A stretch of DNA of 64,000 bases. Origin: a virus. Taxonomy: Duplodnaviria > Caudoviricetes. Location: the IMG/VR virus record IMGVR_UViG_3300032004_000001, positions 23,149 to 87,148 of that record; one strand, 5' to 3'. Below the pieces are notes generated by a model. That model was not told the DNA's origin and ran no database searches. It saw only the letters and a list, made by a program, of their open reading frames with translations. Below are positions 7,661 to 63,606 of the stretch, piece by piece (the stretch's first letter is position 1; every line of letters begins with the position of its first letter). The translations under genes were made by a program, and so were the position numbers.

Positions 7661-8181
7661 TGGCAGCCAGCATAGGCGGGGTGTTTGAAAAGGAGATGGT
7701 CATCGTCATGCGCATGCTGTTCGAGCAGCGCCTGGTGAGCTTCCACCGTCTCTCCGATACCGCTGCAGCTGGTTCCATGGTCGCCGCCCAGCCCAGCGAC
7801 TACCTGCTAGGCCTTCCTGCAGCGTGTCAAAACCTGCAGGAGGGGCAGCGGCTGTGCTTCCTCGAGGTGAAAGCCAGCGAGGAGCACAGCTCAATGCCCA
7901 AGGCCGCGGTCAGGGCTTCGCAGCGCGGGGCCATCGGCCGGTTCCGATTCCTCCTGGGGATTCCCTATTACATCCTGTTTTGGGATGCCAAGAACGGGGT
8001 CATCCAGCTGTGGGACGGCCTGGCTGTGCACGACACGGACCGGATCGACAAGAAGTTCCTGCTGGCCACCTGGCCTGACGTCGGCGTGATCAACAAGCTG
8101 CGAAGGCAGCGGGTTGTAGATTTTCTCGTCGACTACTTTCGCATCCCCTCACACGGGGATACACTGAACAAATCCCGCTAG
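7660..8181 (+). CDS. PD-(D/E)XK nuclease, putative Holliday junction resolvase
   Basis: GGVFE...QPSDY...FLEVKAS spacing resembles RecU/D14-type resolvases; replication context. Confidence 0.6.
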   Translation: MAASIGGVFEKEMVIVMRMLFEQRLVSFHRLSDTAAAGSMVAAQPSDYLLGLPAACQNLQEGQRLCFLEVKASEEHSSMPKAAVRASQRGAIGRFRFLLGIPYYILFWDAKNGVIQLWDGLAVHDTDRIDKKFLLATWPDVGVINKLRRQRVVDFLVDYFRIPSHGDTLNKSR

Positions 8182-8193
8182 TTAGCGGGATTT
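8170..8193. promoter_or_regulatory. palindromic motif copy (AAATCCCGCTAGTTAGCGGGATTT)
   Basis: 11-bp inverted arms around GT, overlapping the upstream stop, 25 bp before the ligase ATG; one of about 12 copies. Confidence 0.65.
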
Positions 8194-8217
8194 CTAATCA
8201 TTTGGGGTGAATGGACT

Positions 8218-9354
8218 ATGCAAGTTTTGTCAGAAAAGACGCTGTACAAGAATCACGGCAAGGCGATTGGGTGGTGGAAGATCGAGGCAGTGCAGCTGAA
8301 CGAAACAGCCGCCGGCCTGCGGATCACCTACGCCAAAACCATGGACGGCAAGGTTACCGAGAAGTCCTCCTCGATCCAGGCCAAGAACATCGGCCGGGCC
8401 AATGAGACCAAACCGAACGAGCAGGCGATCGCTGAAGCCCAGTCCCGCGTCAACGAACAGATCCGCCTGGGCTACGTCGAGACCCTGGAAGAAGCCGCAG
8501 CGCCTAAGACCAACGGCCTGGGCAAGAAACTGCCGATGCTCGCCGAGCCGCTGAAGAAGGTCAAGGAAAGCGACATCGACTGGGACAACGCTTTTGTACA
8601 GCGTAAGTTCGACGGTCACCGCTGCCTGCATGAAGAGTTCATTTACAGCCGCGGCGGCGTGGCGCACAACGTCCAGCACATCCTGGACTTGATCAAGAGC
8701 GAGCCCAACCTTGACGCCTTGCACCTGGACGGCGAGCTGTACATTCACGGCATGAGCCTGCAGGCCATCGGCAGCCTGATCACCAAGCCGCGCCCTGAAT
8801 CACTGGATCTGGAATACCACATCTACGACACGGTCAGCGACAAGCCGTTCCAGGAGCGGTACCAGGACCTATTCGACGCCACCGGCGGACTGTCAGTTGG
8901 GGACAAAATCCACATTGCTGAAACCCACCGCGTCCGCAGCATGGCCGAAGCCATGGTGTGGCACCGCAAGTGGGTCGCCGAAGGCTACGAGGGCAGCATC
9001 CTGCGCTGGGGCCGTGGCGGTTACGAGGACGGCAAGCGGACCAAGCGCTTGGTTAAGCTGAAGGACTTCAGCGACTTTGAAGTGAAGGTAGTGGGCTGGG
9101 AGCTGGCCGAGCAGCAGGTGGTCAAGGGCGTCACCTACCAGGTGCCTAAATTCGTCTACGAGGTGAGCACTCCCACCGGCATCAAGACCGCCAAGGTCAC
9201 GGCGCACGGATCGGTACCGGAGAAGCATGCTGAGTGGGAAGCGCTGGAAGCCGGGCTGAACATGGGCCGCATGCTGACCCTGTCGCACTTCGGCTTCACG
9301 CCCGACGGCATCCCCAACATTGCTACAGCCAAGTGCTGGTACGAGGCCCTGTGA
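8218..9354 (+). CDS. ATP-dependent DNA ligase with N-terminal WGR-like domain
   Basis: Motif I QRKFDGHRC, III LDGELY, IIIa YHIYD, IV EGSILR, V LVKLKD. Confidence 0.93.
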   Translation: MQVLSEKTLYKNHGKAIGWWKIEAVQLNETAAGLRITYAKTMDGKVTEKSSSIQAKNIGRANETKPNEQAIAEAQSRVNEQIRLGYVETLEEAAAPKTNGLGKKLPMLAEPLKKVKESDIDWDNAFVQRKFDGHRCLHEEFIYSRGGVAHNVQHILDLIKSEPNLDALHLDGELYIHGMSLQAIGSLITKPRPESLDLEYHIYDTVSDKPFQERYQDLFDATGGLSVGDKIHIAETHRVRSMAEAMVWHRKWVAEGYEGSILRWGRGGYEDGKRTKRLVKLKDFSDFEVKVVGWELAEQQVVKGVTYQVPKFVYEVSTPTGIKTAKVTAHGSVPEKHAEWEALEAGLNMGRMLTLSHFGFTPDGIPNIATAKCWYEAL

Positions 9355-9473
9355 TGAAAGACATCTTCAAGTGGGAAACCATAGGCATCAGCCTTCCCGT
9401 AGGGGTGATTTTGTCCTTCGAAATCAGCGACCACCTGAAGATGCTGGTGGAATATGCCAAGACGCTGTTCTGA
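9354..9473 (+). CDS. hypothetical 39-aa protein
   Basis: ATG overlaps the ligase TGA; weak support otherwise. Confidence 0.4.
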   Translation: MKDIFKWETIGISLPVGVILSFEISDHLKMLVEYAKTLF

Positions 9474-9519
9474 TCTACCTGGGGCAGCCCGCTGCCCCAT
9501 CATTGAAATGGATGGACCC

Positions 9520-9636
9520 ATGCCAAACGAAATCAAGAAGAAACTCGCCCTGTTCATTCTGGAGGGGTTGATCGTGCTGTCAGCGATCCCCGTCCTCTCC
9601 TACCTCTACCATTTTGCGAAAGGCTGCATGCCATGA
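9520..9636 (+). CDS. small single-pass membrane protein
   Basis: KKK followed by hydrophobic LALFILEGLIVLSAIPVLSYLY; ATGA overlap with sbcD. Confidence 0.55.
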   Translation: MPNEIKKKLALFILEGLIVLSAIPVLSYLYHFAKGCMP

Positions 9637-12081: not shown

Positions 12082-12270
12082 ATGGGCCAATATCGGACTG
12101 GGCCAATATCGGACAGGGCCTCATCGGCCCTTCTCCACTACTTCGCCCAGTGCGGTCACACCCAGGAGAAGATGGACTGGCTGATGGAACAGATCCGCGA
12201 TCCACAGCCGGTCAACCTGAATCCCGCCCTCTTATCCCTGGCTGTAGCCGACGCCATCAAATCCATGTAA
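12082..12270 (+). CDS. hypothetical protein
   Basis: Starts at the upstream stop; good codon bias after the 5' 16-bp duplication. Confidence 0.55.
   Translation: MGQYRTGPISDRASSALLHYFAQCGHTQEKMDWLMEQIRDPQPVNLNPALLSLAVADAIKSM
12083..12114. repeat. 16-bp tandem direct repeat TGGGCCAATATCGGAC x2
   Basis: Exact duplication read from the sequence, followed by a partial AGGGCC. Confidence 0.9.
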
Positions 12271-12288
12271 TCTCGCTAACTAGCGACA
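12268..12288. promoter_or_regulatory. palindromic motif copy (TAATCTCGCTAACTAGCGACA)
   Basis: Consensus copy directly upstream of the sbcC RBS AGGAGG. Confidence 0.65.
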
Positions 12289-17394: not shown

Positions 17395-17478
17395 CAGCGG
17401 CTATTTCCTTATAACGTGTGGCCGCAGGATAGCGGTTTGCCACCTTGTTCACAAGGATCCAAGGTGGTACCGGTCGGA

Positions 17479-17772
17479 TCAGCTTGGGCGAACGGGCCTT
17501 TTACTGGCATCTGGAAAATCTACATGGCCCTCTTTCCAGGCGCGGACTTTAGTTCGGTACGCCAACCATTGTGCGCGAGTGCCTGGCATGAGGTCCGGCA
17601 CTTCTTCCCCTGCTTCGGCTTCTTCGATAGCCATTAGCTGGTTGCCAATGACCGCGATTTCAGCGTTACGCCAAGCATCTTCAATAATTACTAGCTGGGC
17701 GCGAATAGCTGCGGCAGCAGCCTCGTCTTTCATGGCTTTGGTGATCAGTTTGGACCAGTCAATATTGCTCAT
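17479..17772 (-). CDS. tail fibre-associated (chaperone-like) protein
   Basis: MSNIDWSKLIT...WLAYRTKVRAW...FPDASKRP resembles fibre assembly chaperones. Confidence 0.7.
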   Translation of the reverse strand: MSNIDWSKLITKAMKDEAAAAAIRAQLVIIEDAWRNAEIAVIGNQLMAIEEAEAGEEVPDLMPGTRAQWLAYRTKVRAWKEGHVDFPDASKRPVRPS

Positions 17773-17829
17773 TGGGCGCCTCTACTTTGACAGCATTAAA
17801 TACTAAACTTTCACCAGCTGCCTTATTGG

Positions 17830-18207
17830 TTAAACCAACAGGCTGCTCCCTGGACTCAGTTGAGCCTGAGCAAATAAATCTGCTCGTTGTTGCAGTTCTT
17901 CTTCTGTGGGCTCACGGGGTGACGGAAATGCGACCGGACCATCGGGGACGTTTTCCAATGGAACTGGGAATGCCTGTTCCTGGCTATAATTCCACGGATT
18001 TGGTAGCAACAATGTGAGTACTAGCTCACCATTGACGCGATCAATATCGCCTGCGAACCAAAGGGAGTTAATAGCACCCCAAGGCAGCGTGTCACCTTCA
18101 CCAATTGGCGACAGGTCGAAATCTTCACCATTTACAGTAAGGATATCGCCATTTTTGATAACGTCGAGGGTATCGTCACGACGTTGAGGACTTAGTATAA
18201 TTTTCAT
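17830..18207 (-). CDS. tail fibre-associated protein
   Basis: MKIILSPQRRDDTL...NGEDFDLS...ELVLTLLLP..EQAFP; this type usually follows Pseudomonas fibre genes. Confidence 0.7.
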   Translation of the reverse strand: MKIILSPQRRDDTLDVIKNGDILTVNGEDFDLSPIGEGDTLPWGAINSLWFAGDIDRVNGELVLTLLLPNPWNYSQEQAFPVPLENVPDGPVAFPSPREPTEEELQQRADLFAQAQLSPGSSLLV

Positions 18208-18726
18208 TTAGAACCACCTCCCGATAGCTATTTGTAGAACTGTAACAGTTGTAGTTGTAGAAAAGGCCGACACAGGATAGATAACAGGACCACTTGAAAC
18301 TGTACCTACCGCAACAAGCGCGGCCCATACAACTTGCCCACCAGGACCAGAAAGCGATAGTGTGACAGAGGGTAGCGATACGAAAGTACTAGCGTAGGGC
18401 GAGCCAGCTAAAGCACCCCCATAGTAATAGATACTACCTAGAAGCGAAGTCATCGCAATGTTTGGAAACGTAGCAGTGCGATGACAAATCATCGTCCCAT
18501 CAGCGTATTTGATAAAAGTTCCGTTGGTGTTAGTAGAAGTCTCAATAATAGACCCTGTAGGAACACCCCCCGACTGCGAGACAGTCCCTACAATATTCGC
18601 AACAGCGGCGGACCCTAGCCCTAATCCTGTCCTAGCCGCTGATTGCGTAGTACCTCCAGTACCCCCCATAGAAACTGGGACCGGTATACGAAGTTTAGAT
18701 AAGCTTTTAGCCAATGAAATTGTCAT
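18208..18726 (-). CDS. stand-alone tail fibre tip module, paralog of the main fibre C-terminus
   Basis: ATG overlaps the fibre TGA; GTVSQSGGVPTGSIIE...KYADGTMIC...AIGRWF shared with the upstream fibre. Confidence 0.85.
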   Translation of the reverse strand: MTISLAKSLSKLRIPVPVSMGGTGGTTQSAARTGLGLGSAAVANIVGTVSQSGGVPTGSIIETSTNTNGTFIKYADGTMICHRTATFPNIAMTSLLGSIYYYGGALAGSPYASTFVSLPSVTLSLSGPGGQVVWAALVAVGTVSSGPVIYPVSAFSTTTTVTVLQIAIGRWF

Positions 18727-20789
18727 ACAAACCACCTACCGATTGCGGTTATTACAATAGTGCAGCTTATGTTGTTTGCTGTCGGTGCAATTATATAAAA
18801 TGACTGGGAAGCTGATAGTGATGGTAATCCAGGGGTCCCAACATAAGCTGTTGCTGTTGACGAAATTACTTGTAAGTGACAATTAGGAAAAACAGCGAAT
18901 GGCATAGCAAAAGTTTTCCCAGGCACAACTGCCGAGGCGTGCATTGGGGAGTTAATGACTTGCGTAACAGCGATCGACCCTAAATCTACAGTATTACGAC
19001 AAATCATCGTACCATCAGCATACTTAGTATATGAACCGTTAGTATTACTACCAGATTCAATGATAGACCCTGTAGGTACCCCACCAGATTGGCTCACAGT
19101 TCCCACAATAGGTGCAACAGCCGCCGCCCCTAACCCAAGAGCAGTCCTTGCAGCAGCAGCAGTCGTTGCACCAGTACCGCCGTGAGCAAGGTCAATAACC
19201 TCGGTCTTAGCTACAAACTTCGCATCATCTTCGGCTTTGGTGTAATGATCTGCCAAGCTGAAGGTGCCAAATACGACCACTCCAATCTCTTCACCTGCAA
19301 CGAAAGCTTCAGTGAATACAATCGACGTGCCGTCAGTAGCGGTGTAATCGTATCCATCCCAATAGTCGAAGCCTTGCCCGGTCACAAGCATCACCGCGCC
19401 GGGGGTATAAACCAAGTTCTTCCCACCACTATCAAGCCCTGTAAGGGTGGTCTGACCTGCGGTAGTGACGAATTTGTAAGCTACCGCACTGACGTTGTTC
19501 GATTGAAGGAGTTCATAAAGGAACTTACCTTGTTTGGCCGACAGCACTTTGGTCGCATCGTCGGTGGTGACGTTATCGATGATGTCAGATTTAGCCACCT
19601 TCAGGTCCAGCGCCGACTGTTGAGCGGTGCTCACAGGTTTAGCCGCGTCAGGAGTGTTGTCGATCTGATCGATACCAAGCTGGACCTTAGTGACGACTCC
19701 CTGGAAGCCCGCTACTGATGTGACCGACTCAGTGTTGTCGATCTTGTAAAAGCTGGAAAGCGTGTTGGAATAGACCAGGGTATCGCCAACCCCGTATTCA
19801 TCCCCTGAAACTGTGCCACCAGCCGTTACTTTCCAGAAGGAAGAGGTGGAGGGCACCGCAGGGTAGCTGCCGCTGGATAGGTCGATGTTTCCCCTTTCCA
19901 CCAATCCGCCTATAACCGTACCTGCCGCTTCTACAGCTTGGTCCCGTGCGACCTCGGCCTCATCGCGCGCAGTGAATGTAACGTCGCGTGCCGTCTGCGC
20001 CTCTGTTCTGTACCCAGCAGCTTCCGCAGCGGATCCCGCCGCGTCATTCTCGCTGCCTAGAGCTGCCGCAGCGCTATTCTGCGCAGCTATCCTGTATACA
20101 GCCGCATCCTGGGCAGAGCCCGCTGCCGCTGTTTCGGATGCAAGCGCCGCGCCTTCACTCGAGGATGCAGCGCTCGCTGATGCAGCAGCTTCCAAACCAC
20201 TGGCCGCCGCCGCCCCTTCACTGGCCGCCGCCGCGGCGGCGCTAGCAGCCGCCGCATCGGCACTCTGGTCCGAGGCAGTAGCCGATGACAACGCCTGCGC
20301 TGCAGAAGCGGCGGAAGCTTCCGCGCTAGTTTGGGACGCGGTGGCCGATGCCAAGGAAGAAGCAGCGCTTGCGCTTGCGTTGGTTTCTGCCGTACTGGCC
20401 TGGCCTTGGGACGCCGCAGCATTAGCTTCAGCCACTTCCGCCGCCAGCCGGCTGGCTTCTGCCTGCGCCGCGCTGAGCGCAGCGGCTGCCACGTCAGCGT
20501 CTATATTCGCAATACCTTCGGTGATGGTATGGAGCCTGTCCACCGCGAGCTTGACGTAGCCCTGGACGGGCACCACGTAGTAGGTGGGTGTGTTACTCAC
20601 CGAGGGCCCCGCATAGGCAGGGCTGATACCCAGGGTCAGCTGATCATGTGCGTTGACAACCTCGTAGATTTTTCCATCAGGCCCTACGAACATGTCTCCA
20701 GTTCGAGTGTTGGAAACGAAGTTCGTGCCTACACCTGTGACCCCAGCGGACCCCTGTACCACACTGATCGTGCCTTCCTTGTACCACAT
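18723..20789 (-). CDS. side tail fibre / receptor-binding protein
   Basis: N-terminal MWYKEGTISV...VTGVGTNF anchor, Ala/Ser-rich stalk (Stf-like), C-terminal YTKYADGTMIC...AIGRW tip; RBS AAGGA. Confidence 0.9.
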   Translation of the reverse strand: MWYKEGTISVVQGSAGVTGVGTNFVSNTRTGDMFVGPDGKIYEVVNAHDQLTLGISPAYAGPSVSNTPTYYVVPVQGYVKLAVDRLHTITEGIANIDADVAAAALSAAQAEASRLAAEVAEANAAASQGQASTAETNASASAASSLASATASQTSAEASAASAAQALSSATASDQSADAAAASAAAAAASEGAAAASGLEAAASASAASSSEGAALASETAAAGSAQDAAVYRIAAQNSAAAALGSENDAAGSAAEAAGYRTEAQTARDVTFTARDEAEVARDQAVEAAGTVIGGLVERGNIDLSSGSYPAVPSTSSFWKVTAGGTVSGDEYGVGDTLVYSNTLSSFYKIDNTESVTSVAGFQGVVTKVQLGIDQIDNTPDAAKPVSTAQQSALDLKVAKSDIIDNVTTDDATKVLSAKQGKFLYELLQSNNVSAVAYKFVTTAGQTTLTGLDSGGKNLVYTPGAVMLVTGQGFDYWDGYDYTATDGTSIVFTEAFVAGEEIGVVVFGTFSLADHYTKAEDDAKFVAKTEVIDLAHGGTGATTAAAARTALGLGAAAVAPIVGTVSQSGGVPTGSIIESGSNTNGSYTKYADGTMICRNTVDLGSIAVTQVINSPMHASAVVPGKTFAMPFAVFPNCHLQVISSTATAYVGTPGLPSLSASQSFYIIAPTANNISCTIVITAIGRWFV

Positions 20790-20847
20790 GGCCTATTCCT
20801 TTGAGTCGCTGAGTGGCGGCAGATTACCATGAACCAAGGTGTATGGC

Positions 20848-21579
20848 TCACAGCCCTGTTATGTCAACCATCATTCCGTAGTACTGACTGTAGTAGTAGC
20901 CCCCCTGGGTAATGGTGCCCTGGAATTGTCCGCTCCTACCTCCCGCGCTTACGTCCTGCATGTATAGGCTGTCATTGACGAAAGCGTAGGCACAGGAATA
21001 GATGTCCTCATCCCACCATGTGGTCCCATCCCCGTCAGAGAACGCGCTCATTACATAGACTCCGGCAGGGCCAGCCACGGTGACTGCCATATTTGGCCCT
21101 GCCCCTGCGTACATGAGCTTTCCGTAGGGAGTCTCGTTGGCGTAAACGTCCGCCTGGTAGTCCTGGCCCGACCAGGTGAATATCGGTTTCATGTATTGGT
21201 TGTTGGAGGAAAACGCCAAGGTGCCATTCGCAGCGTAAATCTCCAGCCCGTACTTGACGCTGGGAGGGGACTTGGTAACAGAAAATATATAGAAGCTACA
21301 GACCGGGTTGTCGGGACCTGTGGTAGGCGACACAAACTCGTACGTCGTGGTGGTAGCTCCGATAGTTGTGGCGTAGAGACCCACGTCTATCCCAGGGGAG
21401 GGTCTGAAAGCTATCATAGAATCGTTCGGGGCTACTATTTGATAAAACCACCCGTTGCGGGGGAAGACCAAATTTATCACGCCTGTGAGGGTTAATTTAG
21501 ACTCGAACAGGTAGTTCTTATAACTTTCCGTTATTTGAAGAACCCCCCCGTTGTTGAATACCTGAAGACCCGCTGGCAT
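20848..21579 (-). CDS. tail tip accessory protein
   Basis: MPAGLQVFN..G..QI repeat-type start, internal YGLEIYAANG; downstream of J. Confidence 0.7.
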   Translation of the reverse strand: MPAGLQVFNNGGVLQITESYKNYLFESKLTLTGVINLVFPRNGWFYQIVAPNDSMIAFRPSPGIDVGLYATTIGATTTTYEFVSPTTGPDNPVCSFYIFSVTKSPPSVKYGLEIYAANGTLAFSSNNQYMKPIFTWSGQDYQADVYANETPYGKLMYAGAGPNMAVTVAGPAGVYVMSAFSDGDGTTWWDEDIYSCAYAFVNDSLYMQDVSAGGRSGQFQGTITQGGYYYSQYYGMMVDITGL

Positions 21580-21875
21580 TAGTAGTACCCGTATTTTATA
21601 ACGTAGGAAACCCTTGGAGTGGGGGCGAAAACAGAGGTACTGAAGGCCCAGTGAATGGTCCTGCTAGGGATGTCCAACCACACCCCAGGGCCCCTCCTGA
21701 AATATATCTGGCTATTGTCCATTAGGACTATAAACGGCGTACCGCTGGATAACGGTATTACAAACGATCCGTTAGATGTGCCCGTGCTGATAGACCCCTC
21801 AAGCCTTGTCAGCCGGGTAGTTACGTCAAGCTGCAAAACCCCTGCAGCATTCCAAATTTGTAGTCCCTGAGGCAT
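21579..21875 (-). CDS. tail tip accessory protein
   Basis: MPQGLQIWNAAGVLQLDVTTRL; directly after J. Confidence 0.7.
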   Translation of the reverse strand: MPQGLQIWNAAGVLQLDVTTRLTRLEGSISTGTSNGSFVIPLSSGTPFIVLMDNSQIYFRRGPGVWLDIPSRTIHWAFSTSVFAPTPRVSYVIKYGYY

Positions 21876-21876
21876 A

Positions 21877-24800
21877 TCAGGCCCATATCCCTAACCGCAC
21901 ACGCAACGTGCCATTTGAATCGTAGACCAGTACCACCTGGTTGGTGATCTTAACCCGGCCCTGTCCTGCCACCAGCCCGTTTATTTCGAAATCCCCGTTC
22001 TTCGCTAGTCTCCACCCTGACGAGTTAGCCACGAAGTTGGTGGATTGCAGCGTGTCAGAGATTTTGGCGAAGTCAATGGTCGCGTTCTTGATTAGAGCGG
22101 TGTTAATGAACGTGCTGTTGCCTTCAATGAAGAAGGGAATCGTCACGATGCCGCTTGCGGTGCTGATCAGTGCAAAGCGATCTGCCTGGAACAGAATTTG
22201 GCTTTGCGTCACACCTCCGTTGGTGGTGATGTCTATGCCCATGCCGGCTGCATATACCTTCCCATCTACGGTCGTCTGCAGCTTGACGGCGTACAGAGAG
22301 GACAGCCCGTCCTCCAAGCTTGCCTGCGCCTGCTGCACAACTTGTATAGAGGCGCTGTTGCCATTCACCGTGCTCTGTAAGGTGGTGATGCTGGATGCCA
22401 GGGCGCTATCGGCATCTGACAAGGCGCTCAGGCTGCTCTGTACTATCACCTTGTTGTTGTTGTAGTCCGTGCTGAGGGTCTGCCTGGCCAGGGCCTCTGC
22501 CGCATCTGCGTCAGCCCGGGCGGTGGCTTCCTGTTGGATCGCCGCGGCTATATCCTCATTAACGGTGGCTTCAAGGGTGGTGATTCTCTGAGAGAGCGCG
22601 GAATCCGCGGTTGCCATAGCCAGCTCAAGTTCAGTCAGTGACGCGCTGATCTCATCGTCAACGGTAGCTTTCAGCTCAGTGATCCGCTGGGCTAGCGCCA
22701 GGTCTTCCTCTGCCAGCACCTTTATTTGCTGTTTGAACGAAGCGGTAGCGTCGTAATCATTCAGCGCGCCTTCGAGTTCAGCGTCGTCGTCTCGGTCCCG
22801 CCAAGCAGCGCGCAGACTAGTCATCTGAGACGCCGTATAGGTGACTCGGTCGTCCACCTTGACTATATCGGTTCGGTTCTGCTCGACCTGTGCTACCAGG
22901 CCGTTAGCGTCCTCGAGGATCTGTCCTACCGATTTCCAGTACAGAGGGTTTGGAGGGGCATTGCTGCCGTCTGGTGCAGCGGGTACCGGGTTGATAGCCT
23001 GGTACAGGTCCTTGCCCTGACGTACCACGTTTGGAGGTACATAGGGATCGTTGGGGTTGTAGGCGAGAGCGTCTTCCAGGTTATCGATCTGGTCCTGCAG
23101 GTCCGCGACCGCAGCGTTCACCACCGTGGTAGCTGTATTGGTAGCGATCGGCACGATCATGTCGTTGATCTCTTGGTAGAGATCGCCGTTGAGGATGTCC
23201 TCTGTGACCGCGTTCAGGATGTCCTCGTAATCTTCCAGGGTGGTGCCCTGAGTCGAATACCAAGCGGACAACCCGTACTGGTTGGTGCCTCGCACGTAGT
23301 AGAAGTAAGTGCGGCCGGCGCGCAGCGGTGTGTCCACCAGGTACGGCCCGGTGGGCAGCTTGATGGCATTGGTGGTGATCAAGTCAGCGGGCAGCGGTAC
23401 ATCGCTACGCCAGAACTCCCAAAGTGCGTCAGGGTACGCGGTGACAGGCGTCAGCGTGATAGAGAACGTGCCCAGTGTGACCACGATTGAATCAGGTGGG
23501 ACCGGCAGCAGCATGTGTGCGATCTGCACAACTCGGCTGGTCCAGGCGCCCGGGATGCCGGATGCTGAGGATCTGACGCGGATGACCCACTCCCCGCCTA
23601 TCGCATCCTTCAAATCGTAGGAAGTCCCCGCGCCGGTGTAGACCGTCCGGAATCCCCCATCATCTGGCGACTTAACGTCCAGGATGTAGTCCGTGACCCG
23701 CACGTCCTTGGGAGGGGTCCAGCTGATGATCAGGCCCTGGTGGCGCGTGGATCCAGCGAAGTAGGTGTAGGCTTCGAAGGACAGATCCAAGGGCCCTGCG
23801 ATCGGCCCGGTCGGCAGGGTGCTGGTAGGGCGGTCAGGCAGCACCAGGTCCAGTTCGACGATGTCGTACTTACGCGGGTCGTACTCGGTCGCGGTGATGG
23901 TGTAGGTACTGCTGCTATCGTCTTCGTTGACCGTGACAACCCGGAACTGGGGCAGTTGCAGCTCTGTGGCGGTGAGCGCCCATATCGCGCCGGCTATTGG
24001 CAAGTCACTCAGCGTGCCAGTGAGGATCACCTGATTACCGTTGAACGAGCTGACCGGCATACGAGGGATACTGCCGTCCGGCAATACCACACTTAGGTAC
24101 CAGTTGCCGCTGAGTGCCAGGGTCTGCGGATCCGGTACCTGGTCCAGAGTCAAGGTCTTGTTGCCTGGCGTGATAACCCGGCCCCCCATCCTCGCCCCTT
24201 GATAGTAAGGGTCGGCGATTTCAACGATGTCCCCAGGGCGGACGTCGGCGTGATCCAGCGAAGCCTTGTAGTTGACCGTCTGCGTTTCCATCCGCTCGGA
24301 ATACAGGATCCACTTACACAGCCGCCGTGCCTGGCCACGCGAGTTGCACGCAACCGCGGTTACCCGGGTCTCTCTCCAGCCGTACAGCTCAATGCTTTCA
24401 GGATCCTCGTAGACTTCAGGCACAGCGCGCCCTTCATCATCAGGGTCGTTCCACATGGCCACAGCCACCGAGTGCCGCTCGCGCAGGCTGGTGCCGCTGT
24501 ATTCGAAGTCCCCGTCGATGACGTTGGCCGGGCTGACGATCTTCACCGGCGTGGACGGCATGTCCGCTACCGCTACCATGGTGTTGGTGCCCCAGTAGGA
24601 CATCCCACGGAAGCAGCTGGCCAGGGTGTTCAGCGCGACGGTAGCGTCCTCCTGGTCGGAGAAAATGGTGTTGCAGGTGAACCGGGGCTCCATGCCGCCG
24701 TATCCGTCCGGTACCAACTGGTCGCAATACTGCCCGATCTGGTAGATAACCCACTTGTCCACGTCGGTGAGGCCGGCGCCGATTACGGGGTGCGTGGCCA

Positions 24801-48534: not shown

Positions 48535-48550
48535 CGCTCTTTAACAATTT
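48535..48550 (+). promoter_or_regulatory. boxA antitermination element
   Basis: CGCTCTTTAACAATTT matches rrn boxA TGCTCTTTAACA(ATTT); about 85 nt after the -10 box. Confidence 0.8.
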
Positions 48551-48865: not shown

Positions 48866-48877
48866 CACTCTTTAACA
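48866..48877 (+). promoter_or_regulatory. second, degenerate boxA
   Basis: CACTCTTTAACA, 10/12 match to the rrn consensus. Confidence 0.55.
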
Positions 48878-49128
48878 TCACTAACCGAACTATGACAACC
48901 GACCAGCACGGGTTATGCATGCTCTACCTATACCTAATTCAGCTTCACCCACTGCATACCACCGACTAACAAACAACGGTTGTACACACCGTGATAACAA
49001 GGGCGGCTTAGAACCCCGCCCTCATATAGAACTAAGCATTTAGAATTGATAACCCACTACCCTAGTTGTTTAGAACAAGTAGCTGTATCGGCTACTTGAC
49101 ATAACCAACTGAAATAAGGAATTAGATC

Positions 49129-49947
49129 ATGGCTAAGAAATCCCCCCTCGCTGTAACTTCGATGACCGTACAGGGCACCATGGTAAACAGCACTATCATT
49201 GCTGCTTACTCCCGCCGTGTGGGCAGCCTGGATGACGTGCTGTCGGTATGGGCCAACGCTGCTACGTTGCAGGTTGCCGTTCATGGTAACCGCAACTGGA
49301 TCGACAGCCTGTTTGCCTTGCCGGTGATGCGCCTCACTTCTGGCGCCTTGAGCAAGACCGGTAAAGAAGTGTTTGCGTATATCGCCGCCCACTGCCCACG
49401 GGTTGTATGGGATAAGGAACACAACAAAGTAGCACTGACCAAATTGCAGAAAGAAAGCATTCTGGCGACTCACTTTGTTGCGGTCGGTGCCACTGCTGAA
49501 TCGGAAACCGTTCAACTTCACCGGAACAAGTTCTACAAGGCCCACGGCGACTTCGCTCTGACTTTCGCCGGTTTCAAGAATCTTGAAAAGCCCGAAGTTG
49601 AAAAGGAAGAAGTAGCGCCGAAAATGACCGCTAAGGCCTTCGCCACTCAAGCCGAAAAGGCGCTGTCTTGCCTCAAGGATGACCGCTTTGTCGGCACTCA
49701 GGAAGAACTGTTTTCGGCACTGGCCCACGCCAAAGCCTTGTACTTGGCCCTTGACGCCCAGTTCGAAGCCAAGGCCAAAGCCGAACAGGCCAAGCTTGCA
49801 GAATCGGGCATCGCCGCCACCGCCGACGCCAAAGTCGACACGGCCAAGGCTGCCCAATCGGCGGGCGTCGGCACCAATCGCAACGGCAAGACCACAGGCA
49901 AGGATACCCGCGCCGGTGGAAAGGTCGAAGCCGCCCAAGCCGCCTAA
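49129..49947 (+). CDS. first early gene, hypothetical, with Ala/Lys-rich tail
   Basis: RBS AAGGA; 272 aa; VHGNRNW motif. Confidence 0.85.
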   Translation: MAKKSPLAVTSMTVQGTMVNSTIIAAYSRRVGSLDDVLSVWANAATLQVAVHGNRNWIDSLFALPVMRLTSGALSKTGKEVFAYIAAHCPRVVWDKEHNKVALTKLQKESILATHFVAVGATAESETVQLHRNKFYKAHGDFALTFAGFKNLEKPEVEKEEVAPKMTAKAFATQAEKALSCLKDDRFVGTQEELFSALAHAKALYLALDAQFEAKAKAEQAKLAESGIAATADAKVDTAKAAQSAGVGTNRNGKTTGKDTRAGGKVEAAQAA

Positions 49948-49981
49948 CTCAACCGCCCACGGCGGGCCACAAGGCCCGCCC

Positions 49982-50263
49982 ATGCTGACAAGGATATCTT
50001 CCATGCTCGCTGCTTTCCTGCTGTCGCTGTCTTGCGTTGCCGCCCCGGTGGACGCCTCAACCCCCGCCCATAACGAATGCCAGCAATTCGAATTGCAGCG
50101 CTGGGACGGGCCCCTCGCCGATGACCTCGAAACCTGCGCCACCATGGCCGAAGCCTTGCGCTTGATGGGCAAGGTCTCAACGTGCGAACTGGTGCCGATG
50201 GATGATGCCAAGCCGGCCGCTGGCACTTCGCCAAAACCCCCTGTTCCACGCTACACTTTCTAA
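49982..50263 (+). CDS. putative exported protein
   Basis: Signal-peptide-like MLTRISSMLAAFLLSLSCVAA; several Cys in the mature part. Confidence 0.65.
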   Translation: MLTRISSMLAAFLLSLSCVAAPVDASTPAHNECQQFELQRWDGPLADDLETCATMAEALRLMGKVSTCELVPMDDAKPAAGTSPKPPVPRYTF

Positions 50264-50287
50264 CCCCGATACCCGAGGAATGCCGCA

Positions 50288-50398
50288 ATGATCTACTCGC
50301 TGATTTACCGGCTTGCCGGTGCCGCCCTGGTTGCCATGTGCCTGGCGTTGACGTTGACGGTCGGCGCGGCGGTATTCCTCGGCTATCTGCCACTCTAA
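50288..50398 (+). CDS. small membrane protein (36 aa)
   Basis: GAGGA RBS; MIYSLIYRLAGAALVAMCLALTLTVGAAVFLGYLPL. Confidence 0.6.
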   Translation: MIYSLIYRLAGAALVAMCLALTLTVGAAVFLGYLPL

Positions 50399-50418
50399 CC
50401 CGTAGACTGGGTCCCACT

Positions 50419-50452
50419 GGGCCGGGCGTGCAAACGTCTGGCCCTTTTTCTT
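50419..50452 (+). terminator. intrinsic terminator within the early region
   Basis: GGGCCGGGCGT-GCAA-ACGTCTGGCCC followed by TTTTTCTTT. Confidence 0.85.
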
Positions 50453-50586
50453 TCGCGCGTGACGCATGCCTGGCATCCGGCCAGGGCTTATAGGAAAGCT
50501 TCAAGGACCAAAAACAACCTTGAAATTTTCCCATAAGTACCTGAAACACAACGATTTTCCCTCAAAAAGCATTAAGGAATTCGATC

Positions 50587-51060
50587 ATGTCCCTCATGTC
50601 CAACCTGGCCGTGGCCATCCAGAACAAAGGCGTCGACCTGTCTGCCGACCTCGACCTGCCCCTGCACCTGACGAATATCTACGCTTGCAGCGTCTACCGC
50701 TTCGACGGCTCCAAGGCGGTCCATTGCTTCATCGCCGCCGCCCACACCGCTGTGGTGGTCGCCAAGCTGGGCAACTGGTGCGTGGAGCGGCACGGCTTTC
50801 GCCCTTATCGCTCCACGGCCAAGACGCCGGTTCGCCGCCTGCGTATGAACGACCTGATCGAAAACCCCGGCGCCTACGACGCCGCGCTGCAACTTGCCAA
50901 GGACGGCGCCGAGTCGGACGTGGTCGCCGCCCTGCGCCGGATCCCTCAGTGGATCAGCGACCAGACCGGCGTGCCGATCCCGGACCTCGATGCCTACTCG
51001 GCCAGCGCCAAGTGGAACCAGCTGCGCGCCGAGATCGGCCGCCTTGCCCCCAACGCCTGA
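50587..51060 (+). CDS. hypothetical protein
   Basis: RBS AAGGA; strong codon bias. Confidence 0.8.
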   Translation: MSLMSNLAVAIQNKGVDLSADLDLPLHLTNIYACSVYRFDGSKAVHCFIAAAHTAVVVAKLGNWCVERHGFRPYRSTAKTPVRRLRMNDLIENPGAYDAALQLAKDGAESDVVAALRRIPQWISDQTGVPIPDLDAYSASAKWNQLRAEIGRLAPNA

Positions 51061-51070
51061 GGAGAATCCC

Positions 51071-51448
51071 ATGGAACGCAACAAAGCCCCGATCAGCAGT
51101 GAAGCCCAGGTCGCCAGTGCCGGGCGCACCGTGTACCAGATCGTCAAGCTGCTGAGGATGCAGCGTGCCCAGTTCGACCAGATGTTCGAGCAGGACGTCT
51201 TCGACCGTATCGTCCAGCCGGACCTGAGCAGCCTGGCTGCGTATGCCCGGGGTCTGCGCGATGCCTTCCTGGCGACCATCCTGTTCGAGCATTGCGAGTT
51301 CGGCTACCTGCTGAGGGACGGCAGTAAGGTGCAGCTGAGCCAGGTCGCAAAGGTGGACCCGGTGTCACTGATCGAGGCCTCCTGCGGATACAGCTGGAAA
51401 GACAGCGACTGGGCCTTCAGCGAATTCCGCCCGGTCCTGGACCTGTGA
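51071..51448 (+). CDS. hypothetical protein
   Basis: RBS GAGGAG; start MERNKAP. Confidence 0.8.
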   Translation: MERNKAPISSEAQVASAGRTVYQIVKLLRMQRAQFDQMFEQDVFDRIVQPDLSSLAAYARGLRDAFLATILFEHCEFGYLLRDGSKVQLSQVAKVDPVSLIEASCGYSWKDSDWAFSEFRPVLDL

Positions 51449-51669
51449 TCGCCCTCCTGCTGTCCATGGGCCTTGAGCGCTCCTCAGCGGCCCTGTGCGC
51501 CACGCTGGGGGCGTTTGCCGCCCTGGTGCTGCTCGGTGTAGGCCTGTGCAGCCTCCTGGAGCGCAGGGGAACGCACAGCCCGTGCCAGCCCCGCGGCGCC
51601 ACCCGTGTCAAACCTGGGCAGCCATGTGAAGGTGTGGCTGTACCGTTCCTGCAAGGAACAAAGAGATGA
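51445..51669 (+). CDS. putative membrane protein
   Basis: GTGA overlap; hydrophobic N-terminal half. Confidence 0.5.
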   Translation: MIALLLSMGLERSSAALCATLGAFAALVLLGVGLCSLLERRGTHSPCQPRGATRVKPGQPCEGVAVPFLQGTKR

Positions 51670-51689
51670 GGAGAGGGAGGACCAAAAAG

Positions 51690-52248
51690 CATGCAATAGG
51701 CGTGCCAGAAAAGCCTTCCTTACTTACTTACAGTAATAACAAGTGTTAAGGGGTATAGAGGGGTTAAAGGGGAGGGAAAGGAGTAATACAGCTCAGAAAG
51801 AAAGGAAGTGAAGTGACATATCGAGAAATACAAGCCAAGCACTTTTTGAAAAACTTAATACTGGGTGTGGCTTGGATTTTTGAATTTGGCACTCCGGTAC
51901 TTTTTATATGGTAGATACAGCGGATTTGTGCCCAAAACCCGCCCAAACCCCCGTCCCACCTACCCCTTAACCCTCTACCTTTTTCTCGCCCTCCCTCTCC
52001 TCCTCCTACAAACCGGCCTCTTCACAGCCGGCCTTCAGCCTCCTTGAATTATACTCTGACAGCGGCCCCCTGCCGTTCGTCGTCAACGGTGCACACACGT
52101 ACACTGAAAAAATAACTTTATCCACGGCTGAACCTAATTTTAGCTTATACTCCGGCGAGGGAGAAATTTTTGCCTTTCCTCAAAACCGCCCCCTCCCCCT
52201 TATGGTATTAGCATAAGTCCCTAACTAAAAGTCGGAATACACATAATT
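51690..52248. other. AT-rich non-coding island with opposing G-run/C-run tracts (candidate origin or control region)
   Basis: No ORF with phage codon bias; purine-rich left half, pyrimidine-rich right half. Confidence 0.5.
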
Positions 52249-53562
52249 ATGATCAGAGAAACCCTATCCGCCAGAGCGGTAGCAGAAAGATACGCTAAGC
52301 GCAAGCCTCAGAAGAAGGGGCGGGCCTCCTACCTGGCCTGTTACGTGCCTCCAGCCCCCGACGGAGAGCTGCGCGAAGGTGCCGACCAAGCCTCCCGCCT
52401 CATCACAGGTGCCCACCTGGACAAGGACGGGCCCGAGATGCGCGCAGCTGCCAACCTCTTTGCCGGGGCCCTGCTCGATGCCATCAGCTCCAGCAGCCAG
52501 CCGACCCGCACCCTGCTAGGCCCTGCCAAGTACGGTGATCAGGTGCTGGAGCATTACTGCTCCACCCTGATCAGGGGTGCGCTGGGCAAGCCCGGTGCCG
52601 ATGTGGTCAGCCCAGCGCTGGTGCCCTACTTGCTGGGGGGCGTGCCGCTCAAGACGCTGGAGGAGCTGTGCCACCGGGCGACGGAGGTGATGGAGTTTTT
52701 CCCCGAGCCGCTGAGCCGATACACCTTAGCCAACACCCTGCAAGTCGTCGGCTTCGGGGCACACATACCTCATATCCACCACGACGAGTGCTTCGATGAC
52801 TCCTACGTGGAGCCGACTCGCAAGTACAACCATCTCAGCCACCGTCAGGAGTACATCCTGAACCTGCCCCGCACCGGCAGCTATGCCCGGATCCTGATCG
52901 ACCAGGGGGCTTATCAGTGCACGCTGCGCAGGACGCTGACCAGCCACAAGCTGGAGATTATGCATACGGTGGAGCGGTTGCTGGACCCGGCGGGTGGAGA
53001 GATGACCGAACTGGCCGCGCGTAAGCGCAAGCCCCTCGACGTGACGCCACTGATGTTCACTCGGGCGGTGCGCAAGGTGTTCGAGAAGCCCTGGTCAGAG
53101 CTGGATCTAATCGGCACACAGGACGGCATATTCCAGGACGCGGAGGTGCTGATTGCCCGGCAGATCATCCACAAGCTGACCCGCAAGGCCAACCAGAAGG
53201 AGAAGATGAGCGCCACCTCCCTGGTAGGTATGTCGCTACTTACCGGCATATCAATGGCTGCATTTGTGGAATTTGCCGTCTATGATCTAAGGCGCAGGGG
53301 TGAGACCTTCATCACAGCCGAGGCGATCGAGGAGGCCATAGCGATGGTCGAAGTGTCGCCGTATTTCCGCTGTGAGGGCGAGCTGCGCAGTGCGTTGACG
53401 GAGATCCGGTACCACCCCTTGGAGAAAGCTCGCTGGGCCAGGCGGCTGCGGTCGCCTTCCCGTCCTCTATGGAGTACCAAAGGTGATTTCTATGTCAATG
53501 GCATGGACGTCAACGGAGTGGCGACGTTCAAATTCAAGCCCTACTCGATTTCGACCGATTGA
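52249..53562 (+). CDS. hypothetical protein (437 aa)
   Basis: Long ORF directly after the AT-rich island; no motif recognised. Confidence 0.85.
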   Translation: MIRETLSARAVAERYAKRKPQKKGRASYLACYVPPAPDGELREGADQASRLITGAHLDKDGPEMRAAANLFAGALLDAISSSSQPTRTLLGPAKYGDQVLEHYCSTLIRGALGKPGADVVSPALVPYLLGGVPLKTLEELCHRATEVMEFFPEPLSRYTLANTLQVVGFGAHIPHIHHDECFDDSYVEPTRKYNHLSHRQEYILNLPRTGSYARILIDQGAYQCTLRRTLTSHKLEIMHTVERLLDPAGGEMTELAARKRKPLDVTPLMFTRAVRKVFEKPWSELDLIGTQDGIFQDAEVLIARQIIHKLTRKANQKEKMSATSLVGMSLLTGISMAAFVEFAVYDLRRRGETFITAEAIEEAIAMVEVSPYFRCEGELRSALTEIRYHPLEKARWARRLRSPSRPLWSTKGDFYVNGMDVNGVATFKFKPYSISTD

Positions 53563-53566
53563 TTTC

Positions 53567-53580
53567 TCGCTTAGTAGCGA
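53567..53580. promoter_or_regulatory. palindromic motif copy (TCGCTTAGTAGCGA)
   Basis: Immediately after the 437-aa gene stop. Confidence 0.55.
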
Positions 53581-53647: not shown

Positions 53648-54103
53648 ATGTCACACGATCAAGTCACGGACCTCGTCCGCAGCCATTGGGGAATGGTGGA
53701 CTGTCTCTTCGATGAAATCTTCCTCGACAAGCACGAGGACACGCTCCACGAGAAGGAAGTCCTCGAGGAGCTGTTCCGCTATTTCGCCAGCCACGACCCG
53801 CGCTTCCACGCGGCGGGGCTCAGGTGGAATCAGCGCGGCTATGTCGAGTACGTGGATGGCTCTGGCGCCATCTACCGGGCCGAGGGCGCCATCGCGGCGT
53901 TCCTCGGCCTGCCTGTGAACAGGTTTGGCGATGCCACGGGCAACGCGCTGAACGTGATCTATCGGCAGTTCGCCAGCCTGCTCGACGCCCGCATCTGGCT
54001 GCGCTGGCATGTGCAGAAGATGTACGGCTTCGACAGGAAGGAGCGGGATTTGTGGACGGGATACCCTAGGGAATTCCCGGTAGTTACCGAAGAAAATCAA
54101 TAA
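53648..54103 (+). CDS. hypothetical protein
   Basis: Codon bias; AAGG upstream of ATG 53648. Confidence 0.75.
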   Translation: MSHDQVTDLVRSHWGMVDCLFDEIFLDKHEDTLHEKEVLEELFRYFASHDPRFHAAGLRWNQRGYVEYVDGSGAIYRAEGAIAAFLGLPVNRFGDATGNALNVIYRQFASLLDARIWLRWHVQKMYGFDRKERDLWTGYPREFPVVTEENQ

Positions 54104-61923: not shown

Positions 61924-62247
61924 ATGATGGATACCGAAACAGTACGTGTGAAATGGGAAGTCGACGTCGAGGTCGACAAACGCATGTCGCCTCGCGAGAT
62001 TGCCCAGCATGTCGCCGAGACCTACTTCCAGGAGCGGATCTTCCGCGGGGAGCCTGATACGGCCTGCAAGTTCGAGGTGGGCGGCAGCGACGTAGACCTC
62101 AGCGACCCGGAAGACGCCTGCGTCGACCTGGCCCAGGCCGCTACTCGAGCCCTGCGTGACCTCAGCGAGCGGATCCCAGGCGTCGAAGGCATGGCATCGG
62201 TCAAGGCCCTTCAGCGCCTGATCGACCGGGCAGGGGAGACGCGCTGA
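61924..62247 (+). CDS. hypothetical protein
   Basis: GAGGAGG RBS. Confidence 0.75.
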   Translation: MMDTETVRVKWEVDVEVDKRMSPREIAQHVAETYFQERIFRGEPDTACKFEVGGSDVDLSDPEDACVDLAQAATRALRDLSERIPGVEGMASVKALQRLIDRAGETR

Positions 62248-62354
62248 TGCCCTCTTATTACGGCGGGTACAGCGCCCGCCCACCCAAGAAACTCTGGCGT
62301 TACCCGGGTGTACCGATCCCGGAGCGCCTCAAATCCAAGTACAAGGAGGCGTGA
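62247..62354 (+). CDS. hypothetical 35-aa protein
   Basis: Fills the gap with overlapping start and stop on both sides. Confidence 0.45.
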   Translation: MPSYYGGYSARPPKKLWRYPGVPIPERLKSKYKEA

Positions 62355-62635
62355 TGGCCCTCATCCCTGATCCCATGCCCTACGCCGCCCTGGGCAGTAT
62401 CATCAACGGCAACCGCTTCGTGGCCGACCCTAACATGACCGAGGGTAAGCTGGTCGAAGAACCCCGCTCCTGGAAGGAGCGCCTTTTAACCCTGCCCTGG
62501 CAGCCGATGAAGAAGACCAAGTTCAAATCCATAGAGGTGCCAAGCCGCCAGGTCGTGGTGATTGACGGCACCTACTATGCCCACCCGGCCTTGATCGAAG
62601 AGATCCGGCAGTTGACCCTCAAGGAGACGGAATGA
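62354..62635 (+). CDS. hypothetical protein
   Basis: AAGGAGG RBS. Confidence 0.75.
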   Translation: MALIPDPMPYAALGSIINGNRFVADPNMTEGKLVEEPRSWKERLLTLPWQPMKKTKFKSIEVPSRQVVVIDGTYYAHPALIEEIRQLTLKETE

Positions 62636-62880
62636 GCCAGAGCCGCCTCGGTAGCCTGGCCGAAACCACCATCAACATGTTGGTCGGGTTCTGGTTGTCA
62701 GTGGCGGTGCAGATGGTGGTCTTCCCGATGTTCGGGTATGACCTACCGCTGCACAGCAACATGGCAATCGTCGCGATCTTCACCATCGTCAGCATGATCC
62801 GCAGCTATTTGTTGCGGCGGATCTTCAACTGGCTCACAGCCAGAAGGCAGGCAGCATGCCAAAGTTCAGCGTCACCCTGA
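62632..62880 (+). CDS. 2-TM membrane protein of a widespread phage family
   Basis: MSQSRLGSLAETTINMLVGF...FTIVSMIRSYLLRRIFN. Confidence 0.8.
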   Translation: MSQSRLGSLAETTINMLVGFWLSVAVQMVVFPMFGYDLPLHSNMAIVAIFTIVSMIRSYLLRRIFNWLTARRQAACQSSASP

Positions 62881-63245
62881 TCGGCCGCGCCGACATGTTC
62901 ACCGAGGTAGAGGTAGAGGCCGAGAACGCCGAGCAGGCTGAAGCCATGGCGCAGACCAAAGCGTCTACCCGGGCGTCTGACTGGCAGTTCGAAGACTCCC
63001 CTGTCCACACAGTCGAGGCTATTGAAACCCTCGAGCTGGTTGAGGAAGAAGACCTCCCCTCGAACAAGATGAAGGTACTCGTCAACGGGAAGGAGGAAGT
63101 CCGGGAGGTGGACTATGTCCAAACCGACGGTTATCCGTCCAAACCCACGGCGGTGCCCGTATTGCACGAAGGGGAGCTGATAGGGCAGACGCTTCTGGAC
63201 GGGAAGATTTTTATCGTCGGGGGAGCAGGTAATGGCAGCCTATAA
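62856..63245 (+). CDS. acidic hypothetical protein
   Basis: VEVEAENAEQAEAMA motif; Glu-rich. Confidence 0.75.
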   Translation: MPKFSVTLIGRADMFTEVEVEAENAEQAEAMAQTKASTRASDWQFEDSPVHTVEAIETLELVEEEDLPSNKMKVLVNGKEEVREVDYVQTDGYPSKPTAVPVLHEGELIGQTLLDGKIFIVGGAGNGSL

Positions 63246-63588
63246 AAAGGGCGATATCGTCCGTTACAGCGGCGGCAGCACGGCGCTGGTAAAGCTCTCA
63301 GGACCTCACGCTGGCGGGTGGCACGGCGATCACTGTATGGGCGGCAGCTACTACGTCTCGCAAGACAGGATACAGGGACTGGCCGACGAAGAGGATCTGC
63401 GCATGTGGAAGAAGTGCGCTTGGCACCGCGGCGAGGGCATCCCTCCGGATTACCGGCCGAAGATCTTCAAGAAGGATGGGCGGTATCAGGTAAAGGTCAG
63501 TGACTACGTACCTAAAAGGTGGCTGGGGTTATTTTTCGAGTATCTGAAAGCCGCGAAAGCGTTTGTAGCCCGTCTCAATCAGCAGTAA
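63232..63588 (+). CDS. hypothetical protein
   Basis: YKKGDIVRY SH3-like start. Confidence 0.7.
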   Translation: MAAYKKGDIVRYSGGSTALVKLSGPHAGGWHGDHCMGGSYYVSQDRIQGLADEEDLRMWKKCAWHRGEGIPPDYRPKIFKKDGRYQVKVSDYVPKRWLGLFFEYLKAAKAFVARLNQQ

Positions 63589-63606
63589 TCTCGCCAACTA
63601 TCGACA
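63586..63606. promoter_or_regulatory. palindromic motif copy (TAATCTCGCCAACTATCGACA)
   Basis: 19/21 identical to the copy at 12268; overlaps the upstream TAA. Confidence 0.65.

Follow-up and report, generated by a model that had tools for sequence, protein, structure and literature searches.

Throughout the genome of an 87,148-bp Pseudomonas phage (59.5% G+C; IMG/VR record IMGVR_UViG_3300032004_000001), a 14-bp dyad (TCGCTAACTAGCGA) recurs in roughly 17-19 copies at gene boundaries of both transcription arms. We hypothesize that this dyad is probably the duplex-DNA recognition site of a two-fold symmetric, presumably homodimeric, transcription regulator that the phage itself encodes and that would act at the boundaries of its gene modules. 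The window, that is, the whole stretch of 64,000 nucleotides analysed here, corresponds to bases 23,149-87,148 of that genome, and positions below refer to it unless they are given as genome coordinates. The nearest named relatives are the Pseudomonas siphoviruses Lana, PMBT3 and UAntarctica, with about 80% nucleotide identity across the head genes, and relatives of the phage have been described as virulent (PMC8421299). Two divergent arms originate near window 48.4 kb: the plus-strand arm, with early, replication and repair genes, extends as far as the contig end and resumes at genome base 1 up to window position ~15.6 kb; the minus-strand arm runs from 48.4 kb down to 15.6 kb and carries the tRNAs and the HU, terminase, head, tail, fibre and lysis genes.

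The dyad is strongly over-represented. With up to two mismatches allowed, TCGCTAACTAGCGA has 10 matches against 0.28 expected, a number that none of 100 shuffles reaches. For a non-circular test, a 30-bp matrix was trained on Lana and PMBT3 only and applied with a threshold of at least 12 bits, dinucleotide shuffles serving as the control; it finds 17 sites across the 87,148 bp of the genome, where the shuffles give 0.3. The centres of 12 of these 17 sites fall in intergenic DNA, which makes up 7.6% of the genome (binomial p = 1.6e-10). Because the core holds TAA or TAG in two frames per strand, and such stop codons bias an element towards non-coding DNA by themselves, a stop-aware null was used as well, under which the excess remains significant (p = 8e-6). 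In the reverse test, a matrix built from this genome alone recovers 16 sites in Lana, 18 in PMBT3 and 15 in UAntarctica, where shuffles give 0.5-0.7. A preliminary description of the window had named an excess in intergenic over coding DNA as a check of its proposal, and these results show such an excess. All twelve copies listed in that description are present at the positions given there, among them the perfect 26-bp palindrome that it had reported at 42911-42936, and three window copies can be added to its list: 5741 (in polA), 53233 (in the gene for a 437-aa protein) and 54077 (at the 3' end of a 136-aa gene). Outside the window, the genome has another two strong copies, at 5427 and 21888 in genome coordinates. 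The earlier remark that the motif is missing near the early promoter and the first early genes also holds, as window positions 47,605-53,225 contain no copy, weak ones included.

The anatomy of the element was examined in a logo of 48 strong sites from four genomes, oriented by the direction of transcription. Information is limited to positions -7 to +21, a symmetric 28-bp block (aGWWAyC-YCGCTAA joined to TTAGCGR-GrTWWCt) that consists of a 14-bp core, YCGCTA-NN-TAGCGR, and weaker GWWA/TWWC flanks; core positions 2-3 and 12-13 are invariably CG. A -35 or -10 element at a fixed distance from the motif was sought in the same 48 sites, but no information was detected beyond the 28-bp block. The upstream half-site is closer to the consensus in 9 sites and the downstream one in 4. 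Eight of the intergenic copies sit -7 to +4 nt from the upstream stop codon, and sites lie nearer the upstream stop than the downstream start; the distance from core to start is not fixed, ranging over 11-123 nt here and 3-282 nt in one distant relative. Three layouts recur: a site right past a terminator or hairpin (before the HU-like gene, the 55-aa gene and the lysis genes); a site within the first ~40 nt after the TTGACA-18-TATAAA promoter of a 291-aa gene (genome 21,836-21,901), where it occupies about +12 to +40; and a pair of sites upstream of the portal gene, kept at a fixed -123 and -84 in nine relatives, which precedes a weak TTGTAA-18-TAAACT element. Matches to sigma70-like promoters are fewer on the late arm than in shuffles, so that some phage-specific control would be needed there.

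The copies are conserved in position and change their spelling by lineage. About 15 groups of sites occupy orthologous positions in the four phages (this genome, Lana, PMBT3 and UAntarctica), the portal, HU, tRNA and chaperone sites are also present in another eight relatives from IMG/VR, and the boundary sites are orthologous across phages whose proteins are 40-80% identical. Copies are thus conserved at orthologous gene boundaries on both transcription arms, a point in favour of the preliminary description. More distant relatives were found through the first early protein (272 aa, ~30% identity); a search of these for the CGCTA motif found none. Its place is taken by CTGTA-NN-TACAG, of which each of three ~80-kb records has 12 exact copies, as against 0 of a control pattern. 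One record of this CTGTA clade is fully syntenic with the present genome, and in it all 23 sites (at most one mismatch) are intergenic, most of them 1-22 nt past the upstream stop. The CGCTA and CTGTA dyads have an identical geometry, xxxTA-NN-TAxxx, in which a three-base outer box flanks the conserved TA and two bases are free. Intermediate relatives have CGGYA cores with the same GGTTATC-like flanks (a search of these relatives for recurring 12-mers returned only GC-rich coding noise), so that the spellings found so far number at least three, CGCTA, CGGYA and CTGTA, around a constant TA-NN-TA centre. The 291-aa gene illustrates the pattern: a promoter followed by one or more dyad sites within the first ~40 nt is kept in both clades with the dyad spelled differently, which suggests co-evolution in place with a trans-acting factor. 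If a single trans-acting protein changed its specificity, every copy would be expected to change in concert and in place, as is seen here; neither mobile palindromes nor a shared host factor fit this well, and the lineage-wise co-evolution points to a binder encoded by the phage. Many CTGTA-NN-TACAG sites of the distant clade have, 2 nt further on, a third, partial half-site (ATACAG, TTACGG or ATACAA), which suggests that more than one dimer, or cooperative binding, may be involved.

A palindrome of this kind could also act in RNA, as a hairpin in polycistronic transcripts that serves as a processing, stabilising or attenuation signal, possibly together with a phage RNA-binding protein. The intercistronic position of sites right past stop codons suits such a hairpin, as do some paired changes that keep complementarity (TCGCCA/TGGCGA, at genome 5427 and in Lana). 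When 12 copies were folded as sense RNA and compared with shuffles, two proved very stable (-14.6 and -17.8 kcal/mol, with z-scores of -5 to -7) and four moderately stable, but the other six fold like shuffles. The pairing analysis, which covered 67 sites, is harder to reconcile with an RNA stem. Such a stem should favour G-U, whereas the non-Watson-Crick pairs in the would-be stem on the sense strand comprise 73 G-U and 76 A-C; the central dinucleotide, in sense orientation, is GT in 16 cases and AC in 15, and so lacks polarity; and position pair 4/11, in the middle of the stem, is complementary in 36 of the 67 sites but C.C or G.G in 30, the former being the number predicted if each half-site takes C or G independently. 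Compensatory or wobble pairing on the transcribed strand, as structured RNA would display, is thus not seen, the invariant CG dinucleotides are not required by pairing alone, and the commonest form in UAntarctica, CCGGTAACCAGCGG, is not self-complementary. Nor does the element resemble an intrinsic terminator: among the terminator-like sites of window 1-56,000 there is no motif copy, no U-tract follows the sites, and the true terminators that adjoin two of them (46259-46290 and 47641-47674) are nevertheless separate from them. Symmetric information and independent half-sites, without an RNA signature, indicate that the site is read on duplex DNA by a two-fold symmetric protein; this marks the element as a dyad recognition site on double-stranded DNA, not a hairpin or terminator, and we regard the hairpin as quite unlikely.

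Three further explanations accept the element as DNA and differ in what would use it. The motif might itself be a phage-specific promoter, with TAANTA as a -10-like element and transcripts starting just past the core, recognised by a host RNA polymerase that a sigma-like or appropriator protein of the phage has reprogrammed. Several observations would suit this: sites directly adjoin the upstream stop, with 11-60 nt remaining for a leader that includes a ribosome-binding site; some follow directly on terminators (HU and 55-aa genes); few sigma70-like promoters occur on the late arm; and TA-NN-TA, at the centre, is what both clades retain. The upstream half-site also tends to be the better one (9 against 4), and a zinc-finger gene that is annotated as DksA-like in Lana and PMBT3 hints at an action on the host polymerase. 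A promoter needs a direction, however, and the element is symmetric (GT 16, AC 15); transcripts from the several sites that lie 3-12 nt from a start codon, overlapping the ribosome-binding site, would lack that site; a strong and conserved sigma70 promoter has one copy 12-40 nt downstream of it; and protein scans detected neither a sigma factor nor an RNA polymerase among the proteins scanned. We therefore consider this explanation rather unlikely. That the phage exploits a transcription factor of its Pseudomonas host is very unlikely, even though 14-bp dyads are typical of bacterial helix-turn-helix dimers and a phage DNA-binding regulator was not recognised in the protein scans, since Lana, PMBT3 and UAntarctica all infect Pseudomonas yet use different variants, and the distant relatives carry CTGTA-NN-TACAG. 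The LexA box had been dismissed in the preliminary description, rightly so: the core, CGCTA-N2-TAGCG, departs from the spacing CTGT-N8-ACAG, and so does the form of the distant clade, CTGT-N4-ACAG. To our knowledge, the motif fits none of the Fur, CRP, Vfr and Anr boxes, the first two of which had been dismissed there as well. Least probable of all, in our judgement, are selfish or recombination repeats, be they similar to repetitive extragenic palindromes (REPs) or miniature inverted-repeat transposable elements, or 'linkers' between modules that foster exchange among phages, in each case homogenised within a genome by conversion. Imperfect extragenic palindromes beside stop codons with a lineage-specific consensus do recall bacterial REPs, and weak copies occur in a newly acquired fibre module; against this, the same orthologous boundaries are occupied and respelled in place with no presence/absence polymorphism seen, the copy number is low and stable (~15-23 per genome), and no transposase or RAYT-like protein was found among ~70 scanned proteins.

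On the plus-strand arm, copies occur within genes and at the boundaries of replication and repair genes. The first after the early promoter region is a copy within the 437-aa early gene (53233-53246, 24.7 bits), which has orthologues in all four phages; a second follows 4 nt past the stop of that gene (53567-53580, 22.7 bits), and a third occupies the last codons of the 136-aa gene (54077-54090, 23.3 bits), 41 nt before a 372-aa gene. At 63586-63606 a copy of 18.7 bits is fitted between two genes, 2 nt past the upstream stop and 12 nt before the next start. The TTGACA-18-TATAAA promoter of the 291-aa gene, the best host-type promoter of the replication arm, lies between the helicase and 291-aa genes (genome 21,836-21,866, window -1312); it is kept in the four phages, and the distant clade keeps it as TTGACG-17-TATAAA. 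In the 3' part of the DNA polymerase gene, TCGCCAAGTACCGG (5741-5754) scores 20.8 bits under the matrix trained without this genome and has orthologues in Lana, PMBT3 and UAntarctica, to the conservation of which protein-coding constraint may contribute. The copy at 8170-8193 (33.5 bits), with 11-bp arms, overlaps the resolvase stop codon 29 nt before the ligase start and has its central dinucleotide flipped relative to Lana. The exact consensus is found at 12268-12288 (30.3 bits), 2 nt past the upstream stop and 23 nt before the start of an sbcC-like gene. The flank TAATCTCG, said earlier to unite three copies, is indeed common to those at 12268 and 63586 and, reversed, 46648. In the gap before a 32-aa open reading frame (ORF) upstream of the sbcC site, a tandem direct repeat consists of two units of GGGCCAATATCGGAC (12083-12115).

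The first copy on the minus-strand arm precedes the 55-aa gene (47592-47605), 11 nt from its start and overlapping the ribosome-binding site with its 3' end; it lies ~35 nt past a terminator-like hairpin (47641-47674, minus strand). A copy of 20 bits precedes the tRNA-Gln and tRNA-Trp genes (46648-46667), 2 nt past the stop of a 254-aa gene. The copy before the HU-like gene, CCGCTAATCTGCGA (46234-46247, minus strand), is imperfect and lies 123 nt from the start and ~10 nt past a strong terminator (46259-46290, minus strand). It had been classed as degenerate together with those at 17422 and 20806, a label that fits the latter two, which fall below 12 bits with their flanks, but not the HU copy, which scores 25 bits and keeps the same imperfect form in nine relatives. 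Two copies lie between the terminase and portal genes: the perfect palindrome (42911-42936, 36.1 bits), which overlaps the terminase stop, at -123 from the portal start, and a second copy (42878-42891) at -84, both distances being fixed in relatives. Downstream of both is the weak sigma70-like element TTGTAA-18-TAAACT (42837-42866, minus strand), which is conserved and is identified by its match to the consensus only; taken as a promoter, it would place the centres of the two sites at about -54.5 and -93.5. The portal leader (42807-42866, minus strand; ACTAAACTCGCGCCATCTCTAGGGAAGA) is near-invariant over nine relatives, and since its conservation far exceeds that of neighbouring coding DNA, a structured or regulated 5' leader is suggested.

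Further along this arm, a copy of 25.4 bits (34156-34169) lies between the major tail and tail chaperone genes and overlaps the 3' arm of a conserved 13-bp hairpin; its position pair 4/11 is an uncompensated C.C/G.G that is kept in eight relatives. The hairpin itself (34166-34195, minus strand; 4-nt loop) follows the major tail gene, and its version in Lana has compensatory changes in both arms and a U-tract, which makes it a canonical terminator; in the other phages the motif stands in place of the U-tract. Weak copies precede the 688-aa tail-fibre gene (20806-20819; 13.6 bits for the core) and, past a hairpin at 17440-17467, the lysis-side genes (CCGCTATCCTGCGG, 17422-17435, minus strand), the latter sharing the imperfect form of the HU site. 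These two weak copies belong to a fibre module (17,400-21,900) of atypical codon usage, with ORFs missed by a codon-based gene caller, that is without homologue in Lana and PMBT3 and is partly common to UAntarctica and the distant clade. The sequence of the window is near-complete in one rhizosphere metagenome run only, from which it may originate, and partial in plant, food and soil metagenomes.

How a dimeric regulator would act through these sites is suggested by where they stand. They mark the boundaries of the replication and repair genes, the tRNAs, the HU-terminase block, the portal-head block, the tail chaperone, the fibres and lysis, and since the earliest genes are without sites, a protein made early would be able to act on every module downstream. 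The positions of the sites fit both an activator and a repressor, and the most economical reading is a dual-function switch, the effect of which would depend on the position of the site. Just past a transcription start, as at the sigma70 promoter before the 291-aa gene, a bound site would block RNA polymerase; at about -55 and -94 of a weak promoter, or right after a terminator, it may aid re-initiation, as could be the case for the portal, HU and 55-aa genes. Repression or a roadblock is favoured by a site that both clades have at +12 to +40 from a strong promoter, by the overlaps with ribosome-binding sites and by the lack of polarity, and activation or promoter definition by the sites behind terminators, the sigma70-poor late arm, the placement at -55 and -94 of the portal pair and the tendency of the upstream half-site to be the better one (9 against 4). 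The binding of a protein, its encoding by the phage and the sign of its effect are all matters that we infer. Of the regulator site claimed in the preliminary description, a lineage-specific dyad on duplex DNA is thus upheld, whereas the identity of the binder, its action as activator or repressor and the 'middle/late' timing are not.

Candidates for the binder come from the genes that both clades share. The HU/IHF-family gene (45820-46110, minus strand) matches Pfam PF00216 at 1e-18, its protein has HU proteins as the nearest PDB sequences, and it is conserved in both clades; as a binder it is less likely, because the clade-specific base changes suggest direct read-out in the major groove. 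An IHF/HU-type mode of recognition appears unlikely on reasoning alone, given TpA steps 4 bp apart instead of 9 and the same clade-specific changes. The first early gene (49129-49947, plus strand) encodes a basic 272-aa protein (isoelectric point 9.3) with an Ala/Lys-rich tail, conserved in the distant clade, the more than 120 homologues of which all lie on phage-like contigs of 80-92 kb or on short fragments. A second early candidate is a 157-aa protein (50587-51060, plus strand) with an invariant FRPxRS...RR patch. The nearest named ESM Atlas cluster would make the 272-aa protein a 'Streptomyces phage repressor c', an assignment that was rejected, its score of 0.80 being at chance level and without Pfam support. 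The 437-aa early protein, which is partly conserved between the clades and yielded no lead in the ESM Atlas, is a candidate only, and other small or unannotated proteins conserved across clades are a 221-aa protein, a basic 81-aa protein, the DksA-like zinc-finger protein and a 69-aa protein. Helix-turn-helix and repressor families went undetected among ~70 scanned proteins, many of them unannotatable, and the subset of the phage's proteins that was scanned, which included the 738-aa C5-methylase and its 343-aa neighbour, showed no ParB-like domain. The gene for this 738-aa C-5 cytosine DNA methylase lies at genome 5863-8079, and, as an idea only, cytosine methylation could modulate the putative binding, since the only invariant bases of the motif are two CpG dinucleotides.

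Several points weigh against the regulator as we propose it. The protein searches single out no specific binder: in Pfam searches of ~70 phage proteins and PHROGs searches of 10, the HU-like protein represents the sole DNA-binding family, and Pfam at E-values up to 10 gives no DNA-binding match for four early proteins. The AlphaFold2 models of the 272-aa protein (predicted local distance difference test, pLDDT, 82.5) and of the 157-aa protein (pLDDT 87) matched no known fold in Foldseek searches against the PDB (E<=0.001) or in a wide VIA-align search (Z>=5). Very stable hairpins would also form at a few copies, which are long perfect palindromes. The outer flanks sometimes change on both arms together (GATATC/GATATC and GATAAC/GTTATC at the portal site), and such coupled changes could also reflect structure. 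Finally, the sites are heterogeneous in their positions relative to promoters and start codons, so that no single regulatory mechanism fits all copies.

The dyad provides a concrete handle on gene regulation in a large and almost unstudied group of virulent Pseudomonas phages. The respelling of every copy as CGCTA, CGGYA or CTGTA amounts to a natural experiment in the evolution of protein-DNA specificity and supplies an assay by which the regulator could be singled out from proteins that databases cannot name. If the sites do act as roadblocks or portable operators, they could offer orthogonal control elements for Pseudomonas and for phage engineering. A bolder possibility, which is speculative and rather improbable, is that the dyad and its binder represent a new family of global phage regulators that rapidly switches specificity within a large, mostly uncultured clade of 80-90-kb Pseudomonas-type siphoviruses; the binder would then be a conserved early protein of novel fold (for example, the 272-aa protein), possibly a symmetric factor that defines promoters and brings in host RNA polymerase where -35/-10 elements of the sigma70 type are absent.

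Known phage systems resemble the element in part. In phi29 p4, Mu C/Mor and P2 Ogr, a dimer bound to dyad sites activates late promoters from about -55 to -90 and represses where the site overlaps the promoter, with 2-4 sites per genome and a fixed promoter geometry. The portal sites, at about -54.5 and -93.5 of a weak promoter-like element, are similar in this respect; unlike those switches, the present system has 17-19 sites of heterogeneous geometry, many of them too near the start for activation from upstream. The motif goes unmentioned in the papers that describe PMBT3 and Lana. The stoperators of cluster A mycobacteriophages (L5 gp71) are 13-14-bp sites found genome-wide, mostly in short intergenic gaps; they are asymmetric and oriented with transcription, they bind a monomeric temperate-phage repressor that can stop elongating polymerase, and site and repressor specificity co-evolve between sub-lineages (PMC9283540, PMC6550527). 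As with stoperators, many intergenic copies of one short site occur genome-wide here with a lineage-specific spelling; the motif differs from them in being dyad-symmetric without orientation bias, in belonging to a phage with relatives described as virulent, and in that no repressor was recognised among the scanned proteins.

Other comparable repeats are the start-associated sequences (SAS) and extended SAS (ESAS) of cluster K mycobacteriophages, which lie at the 5' ends of some genes, recur at orthologous ones and have no known function; SAS are asymmetric and fixed relative to the start codon and ribosome-binding site, whereas ESAS are imperfect inverted repeats with 17-bp arms, a variable spacer and a subcluster-specific consensus, the left repeat being nearer to it (PMC3203893). 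Orthologous placement and an upstream half nearer the consensus (9 against 4) liken the present motif to ESAS, from which, as from SAS, it differs in its fixed 2-bp spacer, in its variable distance from the start codon, with no fixed position directly before it, and in its sites on both genome arms. T1-like phages (T1, Stevie), which are virulent siphoviruses, have ~16-20 mostly intergenic 22-bp repeats of unknown role, asymmetric and co-oriented with transcription (PMC4319613); these are similar to the present motif in number and intergenic location, and differ from it in that the latter is an unoriented dyad. A fixed-spacer, unoriented dyad on both arms of a virulent-type phage thus sets the element apart from stoperators, SAS/ESAS and T1 repeats.

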